A stretch of DNA of 64,000 bases from ANME-2 cluster archaeon (GTDB taxonomy: Archaea; Halobacteriota; Methanosarcinia; Methanosarcinales; Methanocomedenaceae). Under the pieces are notes generated by a model. The model saw only the letters and a list, made by a program, of their open reading frames with translations, was not told the DNA's origin and did not search any database. Shown here piece after piece: positions 1 through 27,972 of this stretch. The stretch spans positions 5,909-69,908 of the forward strand of contig JAHYIS010000007.1 of NCBI GenBank assembly GCA_019429385.1, read 5' to 3'. How positions within the stretch are numbered: the stretch's first letter is position 1; each line of letters starts with the position of its first letter. A program made the translations under genes and the position numbers.

Positions 1-1
1 A

Positions 2-244
2 GTTTCCAACAACGTCCCTATAAAAAATAAACAATCACAAAATGATAGAGGTTTTTGTATTCGCTGTGGAAATGACTTAAAACTTAATCATGAAAAACCT
101 CTTTGTTACAATTGTTTCAACATTTGGAAAGAATATAGTAATCCAAATTATAAAGAGAAATTTTGCCATGCTTGTGGAACTAAATATAACAGTACTGTTG
201 AAAAACCTATTTGCATTGACTGCTATAAGAAATTGGCAAAATAA
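2..244 (+). CDS. C-terminal fragment of a protein with tandem CxxC zinc-ribbon motifs; the ORF enters from upstream of the window
   Basis: My translation of frame 2 runs open from position 2 to TAA at 242-244: ...GFCIRCGNDLKLNHEKPLCYNCFNIWKEYSNPNYKEKFCHACGTKYNSTVEKPICIDCYKKLAK. It has four CxxC pairs. It is absent from the ORF track because no start codon lies in the window. Confidence 0.5.
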   Translation, partial: VSNNVPIKNKQSQNDRGFCIRCGNDLKLNHEKPLCYNCFNIWKEYSNPNYKEKFCHACGTKYNSTVEKPICIDCYKKLAK

Positions 245-295
245 TAATTGGAACATATTCAATTTCTAAATCATGTTAACATAGCAGTATGATCT

Positions 296-505
296 TATCC
301 TCATTCCTCCCTTCTTCCCCTTTCCTGCTGCCCCTTTTGGTTCACTTATGCAGGGTGCCCCTCCCGCTCTGCTCAGCCTGCCCTTGTGGTGTGAGGGCTG
401 GCAGGCGCTTTTCGCTTATTCCTGCGGGCTTTGGGTGCGAAGTGGGGAGGGATGCCTGGGTGGAGGGTTGCAAGGTGGGGGGCTCGAAACTAAATTTCGA
501 ATTTA
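296..505 (+). repeat. GC-rich structured repeat, copy A (modules m1-m2-m3)
   Basis: Aligns by eye to copies at 2148, 3176 and 3917. Shared blocks include CACTT..AGGGTGCCCC, GCCTGCCCTTGTGGTG..GGCTGGCAGGCGCTTTTCG..TTCCTGCGGGCTTTGGGTGCGAAGTGGGGA and the G-rich tail GGGGGGCTCGA. Confidence 0.85.
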
Positions 506-629
506 CACTTCCAACCTTCGTTCTATTCACTACACTGATTTAAGTCTAAAACCAAGTATTTCGTATGATTTGGCACAGATCATCATTAAATGACAAATGG
601 TTTTCCTGAAAATAAAGGAGTTTGAAGTG

Positions 630-1310
630 TCAAAATTGTTTACAATAAAAATCAGAATCATCAAATTCCATATCATTAGCGATATTAATAAAACCCATTT
701 TGCATTTCTTAGCAAAATCTCTATCATCAAGGAAGAATTCAATTGGTTTTATATATTCAAGATTTGTCATCAATTCATGAAATATCCGTCCATCATTTGT
801 GTCCTTAAAATGAATATCAGCAAGTGATCTTTTCACAATATTGAGCCTTTTATGATTTAATAACAATATTTCAAAGCCAGGATGGATCTCTTCGATTTTG
901 AAAATGATCGAATTTGATAAATTTAATGACAGTTCTGATAAAAAATCAGGTAGATCGTCTATTTCATTGTCTTTAAAAAAAATTGAGATTTCATGATATA
1001 CCAGATTTAGAAAATTAGATAGCCCTGGTTTTGCAGCTTTTAAGTTTTTGAACTGCTCTATTAAAAAAGCCTGGGAATCCAATGTACTGATACTGGAGCT
1101 CTGATAAATATCAGGTAGAAATCTGATAATATCAACCATAACTTCATTTATTTTATTTCTCAGTACGTTATGTGATTCCATAATTGCTGAATGACATAAA
1201 TACAATTGTTCATTCCGTTTATCATCCATCAAAGCTATAGATGTTTCATGAAGTCGATCATTTGTATTAATTATTCCTAAAATGATATTAGTATCAAAAG
1301 AAAAATTCAT
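630..1310 (-). CDS. Hypothetical protein with PIN-like N- and C-terminal motifs split by a long helical insertion
   Basis: 226-aa ORF. The N-terminus MNFSFDTNIILGI resembles PIN strand 1 with its acidic residue. Later FKDTNDGRIFHEL and FFLDDRDFAKK resemble the distal PIN acidic motifs. Its start abuts the stop of the upstream ORF (1312). Confidence 0.45.
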   Translation of the reverse strand: MNFSFDTNIILGIINTNDRLHETSIALMDDKRNEQLYLCHSAIMESHNVLRNKINEVMVDIIRFLPDIYQSSSISTLDSQAFLIEQFKNLKAAKPGLSNFLNLVYHEISIFFKDNEIDDLPDFLSELSLNLSNSIIFKIEEIHPGFEILLLNHKRLNIVKRSLADIHFKDTNDGRIFHELMTNLEYIKPIEFFLDDRDFAKKCKMGFINIANDMEFDDSDFYCKQF

Positions 1311-1311
1311 T

Positions 1312-2031
1312 TTAAGCCTCTAAGACTTCAAAAACAGCATTATAATTTCTTGGAATTAATTCGTCATTAAAATTAGATAAGCTCAAATTAGTTACATCAT
1401 CCTGAAGATCTTGAAAAGAAATCTTTCCCCTGTGAAAAGCCTCGATTCTAAGCAATGAAACATTAATCATTATCCAGATATCAACATCATCTACCTTTTT
1501 TAAGGATTTCTTTATTAATTCATGAATGTTAAAAAAGTATTGATATAGGACTAATAACTGATTGGTATTTTCAGCCTTGTCCCATATTTTAAATTTAATC
1601 TCTTCCCTAATGGATGAAATTCTTCCATTTAGTTTTCTTAAAGTTATTCTAAAAAGTTCCGTTTGCTGTCGAGGTTCTAAGTTTGTTGAAAACGATTTTA
1701 GTTTCTTGAAACTTTCATTGAAATCCTGGAGAATAGCAATTTGATCTTCTAGTTTATTTTCGATAGTTCCTAAGTCGTCTTCATAAATATTAATTGAAAT
1801 AATATCTGTTAAAGCTTCCAATAATTTTTCTCTTGTTTCAAAGTCCAATTTCAAAATTTGGTCTAATTCCTTTTGAATCTGATAAAGTCTATGCATTGAT
1901 CTTAGATAATCAACTGTGCCAATTACTGGTCGCATAACTAATGTAATACTCTCAAATATATCGGATGAAAAAACATCCAGAATATAGTTAATAGATTTAA
2001 ATTGGCTGTTAGACGAATAATGAGCGTTCAT
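1312..2031 (-). CDS. Hypothetical, predicted all-helical/coiled-coil protein; first gene of a two-gene cassette
   Basis: 239-aa ORF in AT-rich DNA with heptad-like K/E/L-rich sequence. It is tightly coupled to the 630..1310 ORF. I recognise no family. Confidence 0.5.
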   Translation of the reverse strand: MNAHYSSNSQFKSINYILDVFSSDIFESITLVMRPVIGTVDYLRSMHRLYQIQKELDQILKLDFETREKLLEALTDIISINIYEDDLGTIENKLEDQIAILQDFNESFKKLKSFSTNLEPRQQTELFRITLRKLNGRISSIREEIKFKIWDKAENTNQLLVLYQYFFNIHELIKKSLKKVDDVDIWIMINVSLLRIEAFHRGKISFQDLQDDVTNLSLSNFNDELIPRNYNAVFEVLEA

Positions 2032-2147
2032 GATAATATAATCCTATTAATGACTTAAATCCATTTATAATCTAGCTTATTTAAGTTTATTGTAAAGCTT
2101 CAAATGATGCCTGAAATGAAAAATCATCATTAACATTGTTGATGTCT

Positions 2148-2343
2148 TCAGCCCCCATCCCTTCTTCAACTCTCATGCCGCCCCTTAGTCTTCACTTTAC
2201 AGGGTGCCCGTCCTGATCATCTCCGCTCGCCCTTGTGGTGAGGGGGGCTGGCAGGGGCTCGAATCGCATTAAAAAGCAGGCGTTTGGTGGGCTATTCAAC
2301 TGACCCTGCCACCGCTGCCCTTCAAGGCGGCATGGTGGCAGCC
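2148..2343 (+). repeat. GC-rich structured repeat, copy B (m1, truncated m2, m4 hairpin)
   Basis: Shares CTTCACTTTACAGGGTGCCC and the m4 block GCATTAAAAAGCAGGC.TTTGGTGGGCTATTCAACTGACCCTGCCACCGCTGCCCTTCA.GGCGGCATGGTGGCAGCC with copy D. Relative to D it has an internal deletion of ~75 nt. Confidence 0.85.
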
Positions 2344-2443
2344 AACATTATTGATACACAAATATCTGCATAATTGGAGTTGGAACATCTTTATAACATT
2401 TAGTGTTAATAGAATAATCAAAGTTAATCAAAATCTAACCAAG

Positions 2444-2665
2444 GTGATACTATTGGAAAGCATCGAAGCAATCAAAAAGCATTTGGATTACATGTCCCAT
2501 GAAATTGTTGAAATGAAGAAGCTAATAGTTGGCCTGGAATCAGATAAACAAAAATCCAATAGAGCATGGGATGATTTAATGAGTGCATCAGACCAAATAT
2601 CGGAAAAATGGATTGAAGTCTCAGCTGCAGATGAAATAAGATCACAACGAGAAAAGACGTGGTGA
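2444..2665 (+). CDS. Putative VapB-type antitoxin (start uncertain; GTG at 2444 proposed)
   Basis: Small ORF ending 5 nt before the PIN toxin gene. The track ORF (TTG 2351) reaches back to within a few nt of repeat copy B (which ends at 2343), so it is probably over-extended. Assignment rests on position only. Confidence 0.5.
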   Translation: MILLESIEAIKKHLDYMSHEIVEMKKLIVGLESDKQKSNRAWDDLMSASDQISEKWIEVSAADEIRSQREKTW

Positions 2666-2669
2666 ATCT

Positions 2670-3086
2670 GTGAATATTTGTCTGGATAGTTCTGTTATTG
2701 TAGCAGCATTAAGAAAGCAAGAAGTCCATCATGAAGCTGCTAGAAATTTATTGGAAAGTATTAAAGATGGAGAACATATTGCTATAGAACCTTACATTGT
2801 TTTAATTGAAATTGTTGCTGCCATAAAACGAAGAACAGGTTCAACAGAACTTGCCAACAGAGTGAAAAATGATTTTTTGGCTATAGACACCATAAATTTT
2901 ATGGACCTTGAATCAACCAGGGCAAGTCATGCATCTGAAATTGCAGTGAATCTTGGGGTAAGGGGAATGGATGCTATTGTTATACAAATAGCAAAAGAGT
3001 TTAATGTCCCCCTCATTACATTGGACAAAGAAATGATCGAAAAGGCTAAATCCTTCGTCGATATCAGTGCTGTAGAAGATTTGTGA
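2670..3086 (+). CDS. vapC: PIN-domain ribonuclease toxin VapC
   Basis: 138 aa. N-terminal ICLDSSVIVAAL is the PIN strand 1 Asp motif. It also has a mid-protein acidic residue and the C-terminal LITLDKEM motif. Confidence 0.8.
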   Translation: MNICLDSSVIVAALRKQEVHHEAARNLLESIKDGEHIAIEPYIVLIEIVAAIKRRTGSTELANRVKNDFLAIDTINFMDLESTRASHASEIAVNLGVRGMDAIVIQIAKEFNVPLITLDKEMIEKAKSFVDISAVEDL

Positions 3087-3175
3087 ATTAGCTACGATTT
3101 GATTAAAACTATTGGGGAGACACTAAATTTTAGCCCTCTCTGTGCATCTGTCATATCAATGATTATTATTTAACA

Positions 3176-3330
3176 TATCCATCCCCATCCTTTTTCAGTT
3201 CTCCTTCCGCCCCCTCGGTTTCACTTTTTAGGGTGCCCCCTCCCGCTCTGCTCAACCTGCCCTTGTGGTGATGGGTGCTGGCAGGCGCTTTTCGATTCTT
3301 CCTGCGGGCTTTTGGGTGCGAAGTCGGACT
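3176..3330 (+). repeat. GC-rich structured repeat, copy C (m1-m2 only)
   Basis: Near-identical to copy A across CCCTCCCGCTCTGCTCA.CCTGCCCTTGTGGTG...GCTGGCAGGCGCTTTTCG.TT.TTCCTGCGGGCTTT.GGGTGCGAAGT. Confidence 0.85.
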
Positions 3331-3414
3331 GATACTTAGGTGAGTGTTTGTAGGTATGGATTCTGTTGAAAACAATTATTAACAATTAAAGCATCCATTT
3401 AAATGAGGTAAAAT

Positions 3415-3600
3415 ATGGGTAATGTTAAGGACGAAGTAATAAAAATGATACATACAATGCCAAATGGTGTTTCAGTAGATGATATAATGGCTGAGTTATA
3501 TTTTCGTCAAAAAGTGGATGCTGGTTTATATGCTCTTGATAGAGATCAAGGTATTGAACACGAGATAGTAAAAGAAAAACTTACTAAATGGCTAGAATAA
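3415..3600 (+). CDS. Antitoxin of a RelE/ParE-type module (addiction-module component)
   Basis: 61 aa. It overlaps the toxin gene start by 13 nt. The pattern ...VDDIMAELYFRQKVDAGL...IEHEIVKEKLTKWL is typical of small antitoxins paired with ParE/RelE toxins. Confidence 0.7.
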   Translation: MGNVKDEVIKMIHTMPNGVSVDDIMAELYFRQKVDAGLYALDRDQGIEHEIVKEKLTKWLE

Positions 3601-3875
3601 TCTGGTCTCCTAATGCATCAGATGATTTGGAGTCTATCTGTGAATTTATTGCGATAGATTCTGAGTACTATGCTCGATCGTTCGCAAAAGGAATTATTAA
3701 GGCTATAGAAAGACTCATTGTATTTCCTGAATCAGGTAGAATCGTCCCGGAATATAATTTGAATAATATTCGTGAAATAATTTATCAGAATTATCGAATT
3801 GTCTATAGGATCAAGTCAGATATTATTGAAATTGTAACTATAGTCCATGGTGCAAGATTGTTAGACCACTTTTAA
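3588..3875 (+). CDS. RelE/ParE family type II toxin
   Basis: 95 aa. IWSPNASDDLESICEFIA...FPESGRIVPEY...IREIIYQNYRIVYRI..DIIEIVTIVHGARLL matches the RelE/ParE fold signature. Confidence 0.8.
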   Translation: MARIIWSPNASDDLESICEFIAIDSEYYARSFAKGIIKAIERLIVFPESGRIVPEYNLNNIREIIYQNYRIVYRIKSDIIEIVTIVHGARLLDHF

Positions 3876-3916
3876 GTTATCCTTTTTTGACTCGTTGAGC
3901 CAAATTTGTATATTTA

Positions 3917-4163
3917 CACACTCCTTCCGCCCCTTCATCTTCACTTTACAGGGTGCCCCACTCGTTATGTTCCTCCTGTCCCTGTGATAAGGGTGCTAGT
4001 AGGCGCTTTTCGATTCTTCCTGCGGACTTTGGGTGCGAAGTGGGGATGGATGCTTTTGTGGGGGGTTGGAGGGGGGGCTCGATTTGCATTAAAAAGCAGG
4101 CATTTGGTGGGCTATTCAACTGACCCTGCCACCGCTGCCCTTCAGGGCGGCATGGTGGCAGCC
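3917..4163 (+). repeat. GC-rich structured repeat, copy D (the most complete copy, m1-m2-m3-m4)
   Basis: Contains every block seen in copies A-C in the same order and ends in the 14-bp-class hairpin CTGCCACCGCTGCC/GGCGGCATGGTGGCAG followed by CCA. Confidence 0.85.
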
Positions 4164-4255
4164 AGCCGTGTTGATTCATATTGCCTGGGGTTTGGAGAGG
4201 CAAGAATATGAAACCGGATGCAGACTATGGATGTGATTCCTGTCGCACCTTGTTG

Positions 4256-4290
4256 GTTTACTCATACAGGGTACCCGACCTTTATCCGGC
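4256..4290 (+). repeat. Degenerate partial copy of repeat module m1 (core GGGTACCC) at the gltX-proximal edge of the array
   Basis: TTTACTCATACAGGGTACCCGACCT aligns with CTTCACTTTACAGGGTGCCCGTCCT of copy B. It lies ~90 nt from the gltX stop. Confidence 0.55.
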
Positions 4291-4380
4291 ATATTGGAAT
4301 AGGATATGTGGATTGAACATGTTTCCTTCAAAAAATGGCCAGATCACCGAACAAAAAGCAACGTATTCAGCATCCTCACA

Positions 4381-6075
4381 TTACTTGTGCGTAAAATAAG
4401 CCACAACCCCACCATCAGCACTATCTATCCTCACATACCCGTACCGTTCGAACTGCACCACCCTGTCAACCTCAGTGGCAATACCAGCCTCGCCAATCCC
4501 TTCAACCTCACCATCAGGCGTCAGCACCTTCACAGGTATCCCGTCCACGGGAGCCCAGTGGATAATGCGGCCGCCCCCCTTCTTTACGGTCTCGATATCA
4601 TGTCCTGCAAATTCGGCCGTGCCCTCGCCAGTGATCCTGATATTATACAGCTCTTTCAACCTGAACAGGTCACCCGGTTTTGCATTCCCGATATCCTGGT
4701 TGCATACCAGCACGCTGTGCTTCACCGTAATTTCCCTGGTACCCCTGGCCACAGTCGGGTGCAGCGAAGGTTTCACAACAGTGGGTTGTGTACCCGAGAG
4801 CTCAAGTTTCACCGGCTCCCACACAAAGAAATACCGGTTTGCGTCAGCATCGATCAACTTGCGGTTCTCGGCATACAGGTTATCCAGGCTCAGGCTCACA
4901 TCGGTCTCGCCCACACCCATATCAACGAAGAACTTGCGCAGAGCTTCCGGCCTGAACCCACGGCGGCGAATGGCCCGAAGCGTCGGCAGCCGAGGGTCAT
5001 CCCAGCCAGAATACTCGCCTGCCTCAATAGCCGCACGCAGTCCGCTGGTACTGAACTTGCCGAACTCGTGCATCTTCACACGGCCCCAGTGGGACGTGCG
5101 GGGATAGGTCCAGCCCAGGTAATCATAAACATACTTCTGCCGCAGCTCGCTGTCCATCAGGTCCTTGCCCCTGATGATATGGGTCATACCCAGCACGTGG
5201 TCTTCGATGGCCCCTTCAAAATCCAGCAAAGGCCAGACCACATACCTGTCACCCACTTCCGGGCGGGGATGCGGTGTCCTGATCACCCGGAATGCACCCC
5301 AGTCACGCAACGCGGGGTCCTTGTGCTTGATATCTGTCTTTATGCGCAACACCCCCGCCCGTTCCTCGTATTCACCAGCCAGCATCCGTTTCCATTCACG
5401 CAGGTGGTGTTCAGGCGCCGTGTCCCTGTGCGGGCATGCCTGTTTTGCATCCTTCAGCTGCTTGAACTCATCCTGGGTACAGGTACACACATAAGCATGC
5501 CCGGCCTTGATGAGCGTTTCTGCATATTCGTAATAGATAGGAAGCCTGTCCGATGCCATGACCACCTCATCCGGGTTGGCACCCAGCCATCTGCAATCTT
5601 CCAGGTACCAGTCATAGGCTTCCAGCATAGGCCGCTTGGTCACGGGGTCGGTGTCATCGAACCTGATAATGAACTTGCCCCCATATTTCTTCACGTACTC
5701 GCTATTGACCACGATACCACGGGTACTCCCAAGGGTGGGCGGACCGTTGGGGTTGGGCGCGAACCTCATAACTACGCCTCCTTTTGCATCCGGGAGTTCC
5801 TTTAACCCCTTATCCGGCTCCTTGCGCAGCGAAAGTTCAACTATTAACTCGGGAGCCATTGTTTCCAGTTCAGTCTGCCACTGTTCCAACGATCCGCTGG
5901 CAATATCTTTTAGTGCTTCGCCCAACAGGGGGCCTATTTCCTTAGCCCTCTGGCGCAGTTCGGGATGTTCCCCCATCAATTTGCCCATAACCGCACCCTG
6001 CTGCGGAGCTTTGCCGTATTTTACGGCATTCTGCAAAGCATATTTCTTAACGAGAATTTCAATATCTGCTTCCAT
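4381..6075 (-). CDS. gltX: Glutamyl-tRNA synthetase (archaeal type)
   Basis: Class I aaRS core: VMRFAPNPNGPPTLGSTRG (HIGH-region equivalent), FIIRFDDTDP, and KFSTSGLRAAIEAGEYSGWDDPRLPTLRAIRRRG. ATG at 6075 is preferred over the track start at 6102. Confidence 0.9.
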   Translation of the reverse strand: MEADIEILVKKYALQNAVKYGKAPQQGAVMGKLMGEHPELRQRAKEIGPLLGEALKDIASGSLEQWQTELETMAPELIVELSLRKEPDKGLKELPDAKGGVVMRFAPNPNGPPTLGSTRGIVVNSEYVKKYGGKFIIRFDDTDPVTKRPMLEAYDWYLEDCRWLGANPDEVVMASDRLPIYYEYAETLIKAGHAYVCTCTQDEFKQLKDAKQACPHRDTAPEHHLREWKRMLAGEYEERAGVLRIKTDIKHKDPALRDWGAFRVIRTPHPRPEVGDRYVVWPLLDFEGAIEDHVLGMTHIIRGKDLMDSELRQKYVYDYLGWTYPRTSHWGRVKMHEFGKFSTSGLRAAIEAGEYSGWDDPRLPTLRAIRRRGFRPEALRKFFVDMGVGETDVSLSLDNLYAENRKLIDADANRYFFVWEPVKLELSGTQPTVVKPSLHPTVARGTREITVKHSVLVCNQDIGNAKPGDLFRLKELYNIRITGEGTAEFAGHDIETVKKGGGRIIHWAPVDGIPVKVLTPDGEVEGIGEAGIATEVDRVVQFERYGYVRIDSADGGVVAYFTHK

Positions 6076-6119
6076 ATACCGTTCAAGATGTACTGGTAGC
6101 ACATAATTATTTGCAAAAA

Positions 6120-27866: not shown

Positions 27867-27972
27867 CGGGCTCGGAGGGATTTGAACCCCCGACCATCTG
27901 GTATCTTCCAATGCATGGGAATATCCATGCACCTTAAAAGCCAGGTGCTCTGCCTGTCTGAGCTACGAGCCC
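27867..27972 (-). tRNA. tRNA-Lys (anticodon UUU) with a 32-nt intron at the canonical 37/38 position (about 27903-27934); CCA not encoded
   Basis: Hand fold of the minus strand: GGGCTCG TA GCTC AGACAGGCA GAGC A CCTGG CTTTTA[intron]A CCAGA TGGTC GGGGG TTCAAAT CCCTC CGAGCCC G. The intron contains the hairpin GCATGG-ATATT-CCATGC. There is one C:A mismatch at 27:43. Confidence 0.85.

Follow-up and report, generated by a model that had tools for sequence, protein, structure and literature searches.

Sedentary chromosomal integrons, such as the Vibrio VCR arrays, and clusters of attC sites lacking an integrase (CALINs) consist of co-oriented repeats separating small, compositionally foreign cassettes whose cargo is dominated by toxin-antitoxin, defence, acetyltransferase and unknown genes, with array content differing between close strains and cassettes being shared between arrays; integrons have also been described in archaea (Ghaly et al. 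2022, PMC9668308), although Methanosarcinales are not mentioned in that survey. Other systems share some of these properties. The pdif (XerC/D) modules of Acinetobacter are small resistance or toxin-antitoxin modules bounded by recombination sites, which carry no recombinase and are moved by one encoded elsewhere (host Xer), their 28-bp sites flanking the modules in inverted pairs on plasmids. Pneumococcal BOX elements (boxA/B/C), enterobacterial BIME/REP and Neisseria Correia elements are intergenic repeats of modular composition, with optional and hairpin-containing modules and possible promoter or terminator activity, but are dispersed genome-wide in both orientations and do not delimit mobile cassettes. 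Finally, certain genomic islands integrate at the 3' ends of housekeeping genes, e.g., SGI1 at trmE and the tRNA-gene islands.

In the 64,000-nt stretch of DNA from a Methanosarcinales (ANME-2-like) archaeon analyzed here (the window), an array resembling these systems in part occupies positions 1–4290 and ends at the archaeal glutamyl-tRNA synthetase gene gltX. The initial annotation had described four copies of a GC-rich 150–250 bp repeat in the same orientation (296–505, 2148–2343, 3176–3330 and 3917–4163) and a fifth, degenerate core (4256–4290), separating AT-rich inserts, and this observation was confirmed. A repeat search, a MAFFT alignment and a profile HMM built from 101 copies placed the core module, M1 (~120 nt), at 305–418, 2147–2259, 3180–3297 and 3913–4015 (E 1e-18 to 6e-27), with a truncated head at 4238–4280 (E 0.04), all on the + strand. 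Core patterns had 0 expected matches in shuffled sequences and no copy was found on either strand in 4400–64000. The GC content of the repeats is 0.576, 0.602, 0.553 and 0.534, that of the inserts 0.281, 0.286, 0.343 and 0.315, and that of the rest of the window 0.475. Two corrections are nevertheless required: the copies are not a single element but a modular repeat, in which M1 is accompanied by optional modules M2, M3 and M4 (copy A, M1+M2; copy B, M1+M3; copy C, M1 and a decayed M2; copy D, M1+M2+M3+M4 followed by a truncated M1), and the supposed fifth copy is the end of unit D, the same M3-M4-truncated M1 arrangement being present in L041, L029, L016 and L175 (L numbers designate the environmental DNA sequences used for comparison).

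The leftmost visible cargo is the 3' part of a zinc-ribbon gene (2–244, + strand; GC 0.28), supported only by weak DZR/DZR_2 matches below the Pfam cutoff (E about 1e-4), and the array runs off the window start. Copy A follows, with M1 at 296–418 (profile match 305–418, E 4e-26; core GCCCTTGTGGTG at 380–391) and the G-rich M2 together with the first bases of an M3-like segment at 412–505; this M2 is 84% identical to that of copy D and is conserved with L041 up to about position 480, after which the sequences are unrelated. The next cargo is a two-gene module on the minus strand, its first gene being a 239-aa ORF (1312–2031) and its second a 226-aa ORF (630–1310). The former belongs to a family restricted to Methanosarcinales, with 75 homologues, all named ones from this order, and no match in Pfam, PADLOC or PDB, while the latter, conserved next to the 239-aa gene in L041 and L214–L218, gave no hit in Pfam, NCBIfam, PADLOC or PDB, meaning that its earlier description as PIN-like could not be verified and only its N-terminus looks PIN-like. 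In copy B, M1 lies at 2147–2259 (E 6e-27; core at 2229–2240) and M3 at 2260–2343, the latter being 95% identical to 4079–4163 and containing a strong hairpin, CTGCCACCGCTGCC...GGCGGCATGGTGGCAG, the exact pattern of which occurs at 2306–2341 and 4126–4161 and is kept in the centroid fold.

The VapBC cassette (2344–3175, + strand) comprises a small ORF (2444–2665), a VapC PIN gene (2670–3086; E 7e-17) and downstream AT-rich DNA with a short ctctgtg-type motif. It is followed by copy C, with M1 at 3176–3297 (profile match 3180–3297, E 1e-23; core at 3259–3270) and the decayed M2 at 3298–3354, which is 80% identical to M2 of copy D, and by the ParE/RelE cassette (3355–3912, + strand), with a 61-aa putative antitoxin (3415–3600) and a ParE-family toxin (3588–3875; ParE_toxin E 9e-20, also matching RelE_StbE). 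In copy D, M1 (3913–4015; E 1e-18) has a divergent core, GTCCCTGTGATA, at 3978–3989 and is followed, at 4010–4255, by M2 (4010–4078), M3 (4079–4163) and M4 (4164–4255), as delimited by BLAST of the modules; the segment 3921–4276 aligns as one unit to L041 (80%), L029 (75%) and L124/L174 (80%). The last array element is the truncated M1 head at 4238–4290 (HMM positions 31–74), about 90 nt from the gltX stop codon, and the same truncated head follows M4 in L175. The gltX gene itself lies at 4381–6102 on the minus strand (tRNA-synt_1c E 2e-62), its best homologues being 87% identical and from Methanosarcinales.

Scans of sequence collections with the repeat yielded 242 M1 copies in 83 sequences, mostly ANME-2/Methanosarcinales, so that the same repeat punctuates cassettes in at least 82 other loci. 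Copies are co-oriented within every locus, with none on the opposite strand among the 59 multi-copy sequences (log2 P of chance co-orientation about -159), repeat blocks average 63% GC and gaps 34–44% GC, and the median spacing is 709 nt. The cargo is mainly PIN, ParE, HicA/HicB, HEPN/MNT, TumE, GNAT, GyrI/Cass2 and similar small accessory genes. The 3' half of M1 alone is kept in a sister repeat family of a Methanosarcinaceae MAG, where it again flanks PIN and 239/228-aa cassettes.

The window's own cassettes recur elsewhere with different neighbours. The 239/226-aa pair with M1 (640–2259) is 90% identical in L041, the shared block ending with M1 of copy B; the VapBC cassette with M1 (2344–3308) is about 91% identical in L128, L178 and L207, where a different cassette follows; and the ParE cassette (3182–4010) is about 85% identical in L150 and L204, with a different left neighbour (84–86% for the cassette in L150, L204 and L159). 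M1 of copy C travels with VapBC in the former three loci and with the ParE cassette in L150/L204, whereas its decayed M2 is shared only with the latter two. Arrays also differ between strains with 93–99% identical host flanks: L135 and L209 are 99.2% identical through hisH-hisF and two M1 copies and then diverge directly after GCCCTTGTGGTGTGGGGGC, while L185 and L129 differ again. Unit-sized indels were found, L197 having exactly one cargo (3.1 kb)+M1 more than L212 and L209 one M1 unit more than L185. In L126 an 816-nt gene-bearing insert interrupts the M1 that is intact in L161, is flanked by a 9-nt duplication of the core, GCCCTTGTG, and brings only a 25-nt M1 head. Arrays lie next to different host genes, including gltX (window), pyrF (L061) and the his genes (L135 group). 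The closest gltX loci found (87% GluRS identity) have no M1, one of them (L221) lacking any insert and another (L219) carrying an unrelated AT-rich 5-kb island. A repeat scattered genome-wide at sites unrelated to cassette-sized inserts, or a static locus with no cassette variation and no associated recombinase, had been named in advance as counting against a cassette array, and neither was what we observed: the repeat is not dispersed through the 64-kb window and the locus varies. All comparison sequences are metagenome contigs, for which misassembly at repeats can not be fully excluded, although identical arrays recur in independent samples (L124/L174, L128/L178 and L134/L147/L171).

The layout and cargo types match those described for bacterial and archaeal integrons (PMC9668308), yet the array being a canonical integron fragment, i.e., a CALIN, is very unlikely. 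No R''/R' (RYYYAAC...GTTRRRY) pair was found anywhere in 1–4400, against 1.2 expected by chance, no conserved hairpin was detected (folding z-scores of -0.25 to -1.3), the repeat is 120–380 nt long against 57–141 nt for attC and is conserved in sequence rather than in structure, no IntI or attI was found at array ends, cargo ORFs lie on both strands (96:73) and include whole operons up to several kb, and many units have no ORF. It is similarly improbable that the repeats are a family of structured non-coding RNA genes merely lying between cassettes. They do form GC-rich islands in AT-rich DNA, with some G-U-compatible changes and, in single-sequence folds, a pyrimidine-rich M1 head complementary to the purine-rich M2; however, no Rfam match was obtained at E up to 10, RNAalifold found no consensus structure for M1 or M1+M2, candidate helices vary by pair-breaking and not compensatory changes, and module content is variable.

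No recombinase was found to recur beside the arrays: among 150 non-redundant ORFs of at least 160 aa within 5 kb of arrays, the commonest families were Radical_SAM (4) and DDE_Tnp_1 (3), with no integrase family in the top 25. This also weighs against serial integration of small integrative elements at one attachment site, each carrying an M1 att copy and inserting into the previous one with later loss of the integrase genes, a reading close to the tandem accretion proposed in the initial annotation. In its favour are the direct, co-oriented repeats at every junction, the position of the array at the 3' end of a housekeeping gene (gltX in the window, pyrF in L061, a 366-aa gene in L135), the variability of the gltX 3' flank in relatives, and L061, where the whole M1-VapBC-M1 block is flanked by a ~120-nt duplication of the pyrF 3' end, as after integrase-mediated insertion and as in the genomic islands mentioned above. 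However, those islands are each one element, whereas the internal structure here is a repeat-cassette array; units are only 0.2–3 kb, no integrase or integrase remnant recurs in 82 loci, the repeat is absent from IMG/VR viral contigs, PLSDB plasmids and GenBank phages, and arrays occur at many different host genes, so that M1 is not a copy of a host target. We consider this reading to fit poorly and to be unlikely.

Even less likely is that M1 units are non-autonomous transposons (MITE- or PATE-like, moved for example by a DDE or an IS200/IS605 Y1 transposase) piling up in AT-rich accessory islands, with co-orientation coming from strand-biased single-strand transposition. The modular short repeats, the single 9-nt target-like duplication in L126, the DDE_Tnp_1 transposases near three arrays, one IS200 TnpA inside an array (L194, 8097–8549) and hairpin modules (M3 and the short-motif M0) resembling subterminal palindromes may be cited in support. 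On the other hand, no terminal inverted repeats or regular target duplications flank M1 units, copies are confined to arrays (5 in 4.3 kb and none in the other 60 kb of the window), cassettes rather than repeats are the units shared between loci, and transposases are rare and of differing families.

A more serious, though still doubtful, alternative is that M1 is an intergenic punctuation element, a terminator- or promoter-bearing spacer multiplying by tandem duplication and unequal crossing-over, with cassette shuffling as a by-product of ordinary homologous recombination and gene conversion between the direct repeats and no dedicated recombinase involved. Junction and truncation points after the core vary over about 25–30 nt, scattering across the most conserved stretch of M1 as expected for homology-driven exchange, whereas a tyrosine or serine recombinase is expected to cut at one position; some cassette borders also lie outside M1, such as 2343/2344 after M3, which is shared by five loci (L207, L178, L128, L061 and L039) at 88–92% identity. 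The unit-sized indels and the cargo-free tandem runs of 200–340-nt units in L182, L146 and L121 are what unequal crossing-over produces, and the central part of M1 appears not to travel with either neighbouring cargo, which would fit gene conversion, though this profile rests on only 4–6 pairs. A BRE/TATA-like motif, GAAATATAWTT, sits 58–74 nt after M1 in 27 of the 31 motif copies that have an upstream M1, and is on the M1 strand 39 times against 1, while M1 ends in an inverted repeat followed by GCTTTT; the window's own copies, however, lack the TATA-like motif. Against this reading, the L126 insertion is bounded by only 9 nt of identity and joins M1 to unique DNA, the same cassettes occur at unrelated chromosomal loci and in lineages whose cassettes are 85–91% identical, which requires transfer and insertion and not just local crossing-over, and M1 copies are only about 65–90% identical over 120 nt, a poor substrate for homologous recombination. 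Since the exchange junctions are spread over about 30 nt instead of lying at one position, a dedicated site-specific mechanism is not shown, and both a site-specific recombinase and homologous exchange remain possible.

In conclusion, the interpretation given in the initial annotation is partly supported: a recombination-built, variable cassette array that is not a textbook integron is borne out, while a linked recombinase and accretion at one att site are not. We favour, with only moderate confidence, the view that positions 1–4290 are one end of a chromosomal gene-cassette array of a family specific to ANME-2/Methanosarcinales archaea. Its structure, i.e., AT-rich accessory modules (here three toxin-antitoxin-type pairs and a Zn-ribbon gene) separated by co-oriented M1 sites that often carry the optional modules M2–M4, was shown, and comparison between sequences demonstrated that cassettes are gained, lost and reassorted between arrays, between chromosomal loci and between lineages. 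That exchange occurs inside the conserved 3' third of M1, at the core GCCCTTGTGGTG bracketed by an imperfect 7-bp inverted repeat GCCYGCC...GGCAGGC, is inferred, and a mobile unit would then consist of an M1 tail (plus M2/M3), cargo and an M1 head. It is a matter of speculation that, since no recombinase recurs beside the arrays, the enzyme would act in trans, most likely being a site-specific recombinase encoded elsewhere in the genome, by which the arrays would resemble pdif modules, though with sites that are about 120 nt long, direct and chromosomal; M1 also differs from BOX, BIME/REP and Correia elements in being confined to arrays and strictly co-oriented. The array represents a real and apparently undescribed cassette-array family that works like an integron but is not one, in which the toxin-antitoxin cargo would stabilise the array, as it does in chromosomal integrons.

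The initial annotation had described a GC-rich direct repeat separating small cargo modules next to gltX, and this observation was confirmed. A repeat search, a MAFFT alignment and a profile HMM built later from 101 copies of the core module of the repeat (M1) place copies at 305-418, 2147-2259, 3180-3297 and 3913-4015 (E 1e-18 to 6e-27), with a truncated head at 4238-4280, all on the + strand. Core patterns have zero expected chance matches, and neither strand of 4400-64000 holds another copy. The repeats have a GC content of 53–60%, the inserts between them 28–34% and the rest of the window 47.5%. This remainder is core archaeal chromosome containing genes for RNA polymerase subunits, EF-2 and EF-1alpha, as well as an intron-containing tRNA gene (27867-27972, - strand; Rfam, 54 bits, spanning 106 nt), although ARAGORN in bacterial mode reports no tRNA in the whole window and thus no tRNA target.

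The cargo is as initially described: a Zn-ribbon tail, two minus-strand ORFs of 226 and 239 aa without assigned function, a VapC PIN gene (E 7e-17) and a ParE/RelE gene (ParE_toxin, E 9e-20), each of the latter two with a small upstream ORF, followed by archaeal GluRS on the minus strand. The two toxin domains with their small upstream partners fit type II toxin-antitoxin cargo (VapBC, ParDE/RelBE), though the NCBIfam matches to VapC and RelE_StbE are below cutoff and the antitoxin ORFs, having no family match, are assigned by position only. The 239-aa + ~226–236-aa gene pair (630-2031, - strand, in the window; 1376-2789 in L041, one of the comparison contigs, which are designated here by L numbers; also in L214-L218) is a conserved two-gene module restricted to Methanosarcinales, including Methanoperedens, Methanolobus and Methanosalsum, and often lies next to type I restriction-modification genes. 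No match was found for it in Pfam, NCBIfam, PADLOC or PDB, and it is a candidate new toxin-antitoxin or defence pair.

The repeat is modular. M1 (about 120 nt) has the consensus CCAGCCCCCATCCCTTCTTC..CTCCTGCCGCCCC..TTCACT..GGGTGCCC..GATCTGCTCCGCCCGCCCTTGTGGTGTGGGGGCTGGCAGGCGCTTTTCG, and may be followed by the optional modules M2 (G-rich), M3 (a strong hairpin) and M4. Copy A (M1 at 305-418) consists of M1+M2, copy B (2147-2259) of M1+M3, copy C (3180-3297) of M1 and a decayed M2, and copy D (3913-4015) of M1+M2+M3+M4 followed by a truncated M1, so that what the initial annotation had taken for a fifth copy is the tail of unit D. ORFs running across the repeat are spurious, since copies differ by frame-shifting indels.

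A scan of one genome per species found true copies only in ANME-2/Methanosarcinales MAGs, plus two contigs binned as Bacteroidales (L029, JAHYJP010000195.1) and Omnitrophota (L039, JAIORP010000083.1). The latter also carries the VapBC cassette of the window at 90% identity, and both are probably misbinned Methanosarcinales contigs; if they are not, this would be cross-domain spread. A metagenome scan with an independent core pattern gave 94 loci, whereas viral contigs, plasmids and phages gave none. In total, 242 M1 copies lie in 83 sequences, and in each of the 59 multi-copy sequences all copies are co-oriented. Repeat blocks average 63% GC and gaps 34–44% GC, and start-to-start spacing has a median of 709 nt, with 66 units being 400 nt or shorter and usually lacking an ORF, and 91 being 0.4–3.5 kb long. 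Arrays reach 10 M1 copies per 10 kb (L190; also L205, L128 and L182). The non-redundant cargo is rich in PIN, ParE, HicA/HicB, HEPN/MNT, TumE and AF2212-like families and also holds GNAT, GyrI/Cass2, nitroreductase, RNase III-like and others. One cassette (L206, 993-1481) encodes a GyrI-like protein which also matches the Pfam family Cass2, "integron-associated effector binding protein" (E 1e-5, below the Pfam cutoff), a cargo type known from bacterial integron cassettes.

Two further sequence elements accompany the repeat. A BRE/TATA-like motif, GAAATATAWTT, belongs to many repeat units (L182 at 4084, 4262, 4770, 5047, 5266 and beyond; L146; L205; L215 at 757 and 934) but not to the copies of the window; it is on the M1 strand 39 times against 1, and in 27 of the 31 motif copies with an upstream M1 it lies 58–74 nt after the M1 end and 29–120 nt before the next M1, making it a possible outward-facing archaeal promoter. 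A bacterial promoter and terminator scan was uninformative for an archaeon. In addition, a variable short-motif element made of repeated ctgcg, ctgtg, gttcg or ctttgcg pentamers/heptamers often precedes M1 (e.g., window 3147-3160; L182 4150-4185; L101 3340-3400; L061 1-55), often forms a hairpin with an inverted partner and often ends in GGTTAA. It also occurs alone between ordinary genes (L061 2284-2350), and constitutes a second repeat family of these archaea.

Several lines of comparison show that the arrays are dynamic. The cassettes of the window recur with other neighbours: 2344-3308 (VapBC + M1) is about 91% identical in L128, L178 and L207, where in L128 a different cassette follows while the other two contigs end within about 160 nt; in L061 the same VapBC cassette sits beside pyrF; 3182-4010 (M1 + ParE cassette + M1) is about 85% identical in L150 and L204, with a different left neighbour; and 640-2259 (the 239/226-aa pair + M1) is 90% identical in L041 and diverges right after M1. 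The same host locus may also carry different arrays, as L135, L209, L185 and L129 share the hisH-hisF-366-aa flank at 93–99% identity but carry different cassette sets, with L135 and L209 being 99.2% identical through two M1 copies and parting directly after GCCCTTGTGGTGTGGGGGC. Unit-sized indels occur: L197 has one cargo(3.1 kb)+M1 more than L212, and L209 has one M1 unit more than L185. One insertion lies inside a site, in L126, which has an 816-nt gene-bearing insert in the M1 that is intact in L161; this insert is flanked by a 9-nt duplication, GCCCTTGTG, and carries only a 25-nt M1 head. In L101 (2174-2232, - strand), an M1 head truncated after TTCACTCAT is fused directly to a 5'-truncated nucleotidyltransferase (MNT antitoxin-type) gene, and array rearrangements can therefore cut into cargo genes. 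All of these comparison loci are metagenome contigs, and chimeric joins at repeats are conceivable; against that, exact identity between copies is short, and identical arrays recur in independent samples (L124/L174, L128/L178 and L134/L147/L171). Finally, a Methanosarcinaceae MAG (L215; 600-1010, 1760-1870, 3670-3700, 4140-4185) has a sister repeat that keeps only the M1 3' half, M2 and the TATA-like motif, forms 175-nt tandem units, again flanks AF2212/PIN and 239/228-aa cassettes and is truncated at or near the core where cassettes begin, which suggests that the core half is the ancient functional part.

The orthologous gltX locus is likewise variable. The closest GluRS found (87% identity) lies on contigs without any M1: in L221, gltX is followed after 10 nt by a methyltransferase gene, and in L219 an unrelated AT-rich 5-kb island sits there. 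The first ~35 nt after the gltX stop codon are similar in the window (4291-4380; TGTGAGGATGCTGAATACGTTGCTTTTTGTTC) and in L219 (11696-11740; TCTGATTATGCTGAATACTTTGCTTATTATTC), both of which carry inserts there, but the sequence is absent from L221, which has no insert; it may be a shared island edge or att remnant. With regard to an integrative island at a gene 3' end, which would be marked by direct repeats of the host target flanking the insert and by an integrase, the M1-VapBC-M1 block beside pyrF in L061 is flanked by a ~120-nt direct duplication (176-296 and 1510-1620), covering the last 47 nt of pyrF plus 73 nt downstream, with roughly 90% identity and an 11-nt indel. Its left copy runs straight into M1 at ...GCGCCCGCCGCC|TCTCGCCTTCACTTT, and it looks like the scar of an integrase-type insertion that founded the array at this locus, although no integrase is present. 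In the window no duplicate of the gltX flank occurs within 1-4300, but the array continues beyond position 1 and its left border, together with any linked gene, lies outside the sequence; exact-protein look-ups for four window proteins, made in order to extend the contig, found nothing on record.

The informative junctions fall in the most conserved 3' third of M1, that is, the core GCCCTTGTGGTG bracketed by an imperfect 7-bp inverted repeat GCCYGCC...GGCAGGC, and 212 of 242 copies keep the core. They are not at one nucleotide, since truncated or hybrid copies end at the core, or 1, 3, 7, 12 or about 20 nt after it, and a single precise crossover was rejected after these truncated copies had been listed. 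Some cassette borders lie outside M1, for example 2343/2344 after M3, which is shared by five loci. A breakpoint histogram from megablast block ends was discarded as confounded, because alignments extend through any conserved M1. A per-column identity profile of M1 next to shared cargo is suggestive, in that the M1 head and tail travel with the cargo while the centre does not, but it rests on only 4–6 pairs, too few to rely on.

The interpretation in the initial annotation, which proposed a recombination-built cassette array that is not a textbook integron, or tandem accretion of small integrative elements at one att site, is partly supported: the cassette-array reading is supported, whereas tandem accretion fits poorly. 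As in integrons, co-oriented sites punctuate a variable set of cassettes, but only the layout, the cargo type and the variability match. The integron integrase, IntI, is a tyrosine recombinase encoded next to the array, but no integrase family is among the 25 commonest of the 201 Pfam families matched by 150 non-redundant ORFs of at least 160 aa within 5 kb of 82 arrays, a summary in which a rare integrase could be hidden; both array ends are visible in several loci (e.g., L135), and in CALINs the integrase is absent by definition. No pair of R''(RYYYAAC)...R'(GTTRRRY) boxes occurs on either strand in 1-4400, where shuffles give a mean of 1.2. Whereas attC sites fold as imperfect single-strand hairpins conserved in structure rather than in sequence, the DNA fold of unit D has z -0.25 (+ strand) and -0.56 (- strand), RNAalifold on 101 M1 copies gives about 0 kcal/mol on both strands, and the repeat is conserved in sequence instead. 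Integron cassettes are mostly single ORFs in one orientation, but here, out of 169 cargo ORFs, 96 are on the repeat strand and 73 opposite, and two-gene and multi-gene units are common. The paper on archaeal integrons (PMC9668308) describes canonical IntI/attC and does not mention Methanosarcinales, and full-text literature searches found no description of this repeat family or of such arrays in Methanosarcinales.

A MITE or other non-autonomous transposon is not supported either: no terminal inverted repeats were found at M1 borders, only one 9-nt duplication was seen, 0 of 242 copies are inverted within a locus and no copy occurs in 60 kb of adjacent chromosome. An IS200-type Y1 transposase gene (Y1_Tnp, E 1e-32) does lie inside one array (L194, 8097-8549), 75 nt upstream of an M1 copy, and is the only HUH enzyme seen among the array cargo. 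As for a structured RNA, Rfam 15 gave no family, either at gathering threshold or at E up to 10, no consensus structure was obtained and variation is pair-breaking rather than compensatory; a hand-drawn 12-bp helix CCTGCCGCCCCC/GGGGGCTGGCAGG and an M1-head/M2 helix, tested on 101 and 21 copies, respectively, have no covariation support. Serial integration of small elements, transposon-like spread and an RNA role are all considered less likely.

What the analysis establishes is the family itself, its co-orientation, cargo type, reassortment and strain-level variability, and the location of informative junctions in or near the M1 core. That M1 is the exchange site, and that a mobile unit is made up of M1 tail (+M2/M3), cargo and M1 head, is inferred, whereas the nature of the enzyme is speculative. 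We favour a site-specific recombinase encoded in trans, because the L126 event needs only 9 nt of identity, the cassettes appear at unrelated loci and in different lineages, and M1 copies are only 65–90% identical; however, the scatter of junctions and the cargo-free tandem runs keep homologous recombination and unequal crossing-over as a serious rival. The array works like an integron-type cassette array but is not a member of that class. It remains possible, though on present evidence rather unlikely, that M1 is the attachment site of a second, independently evolved gene-cassette capture system in Archaea, in which a so far unidentified trans-encoded recombinase would recognise the ~30-bp core (GCCYGCC-CTTGTGGTG-N-GGCAGGC) and would excise and insert cassettes in ANME-2/Methanosarcinales chromosomes, which would be functionally an "integron" with unrelated sites and an unrelated enzyme.

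Integrons are the only well-understood platform that stockpiles and shuffles single-gene cassettes, and those reported in Archaea use bacterial-type IntI and attC. A sequence-defined repeat that does the same job in methane-oxidising and methanogenic Methanosarcinales, without attC or a linked integrase, would point to either a new recombinase-site pair or a purely homology-driven way of building cassette arrays. It would also explain why these regions break short-read assemblies, since most cassette homologues sit on 1–6 kb contigs, and would give a simple marker, the M1 core, for finding the variable defence and toxin-antitoxin gene pool of uncultured ANME-2.
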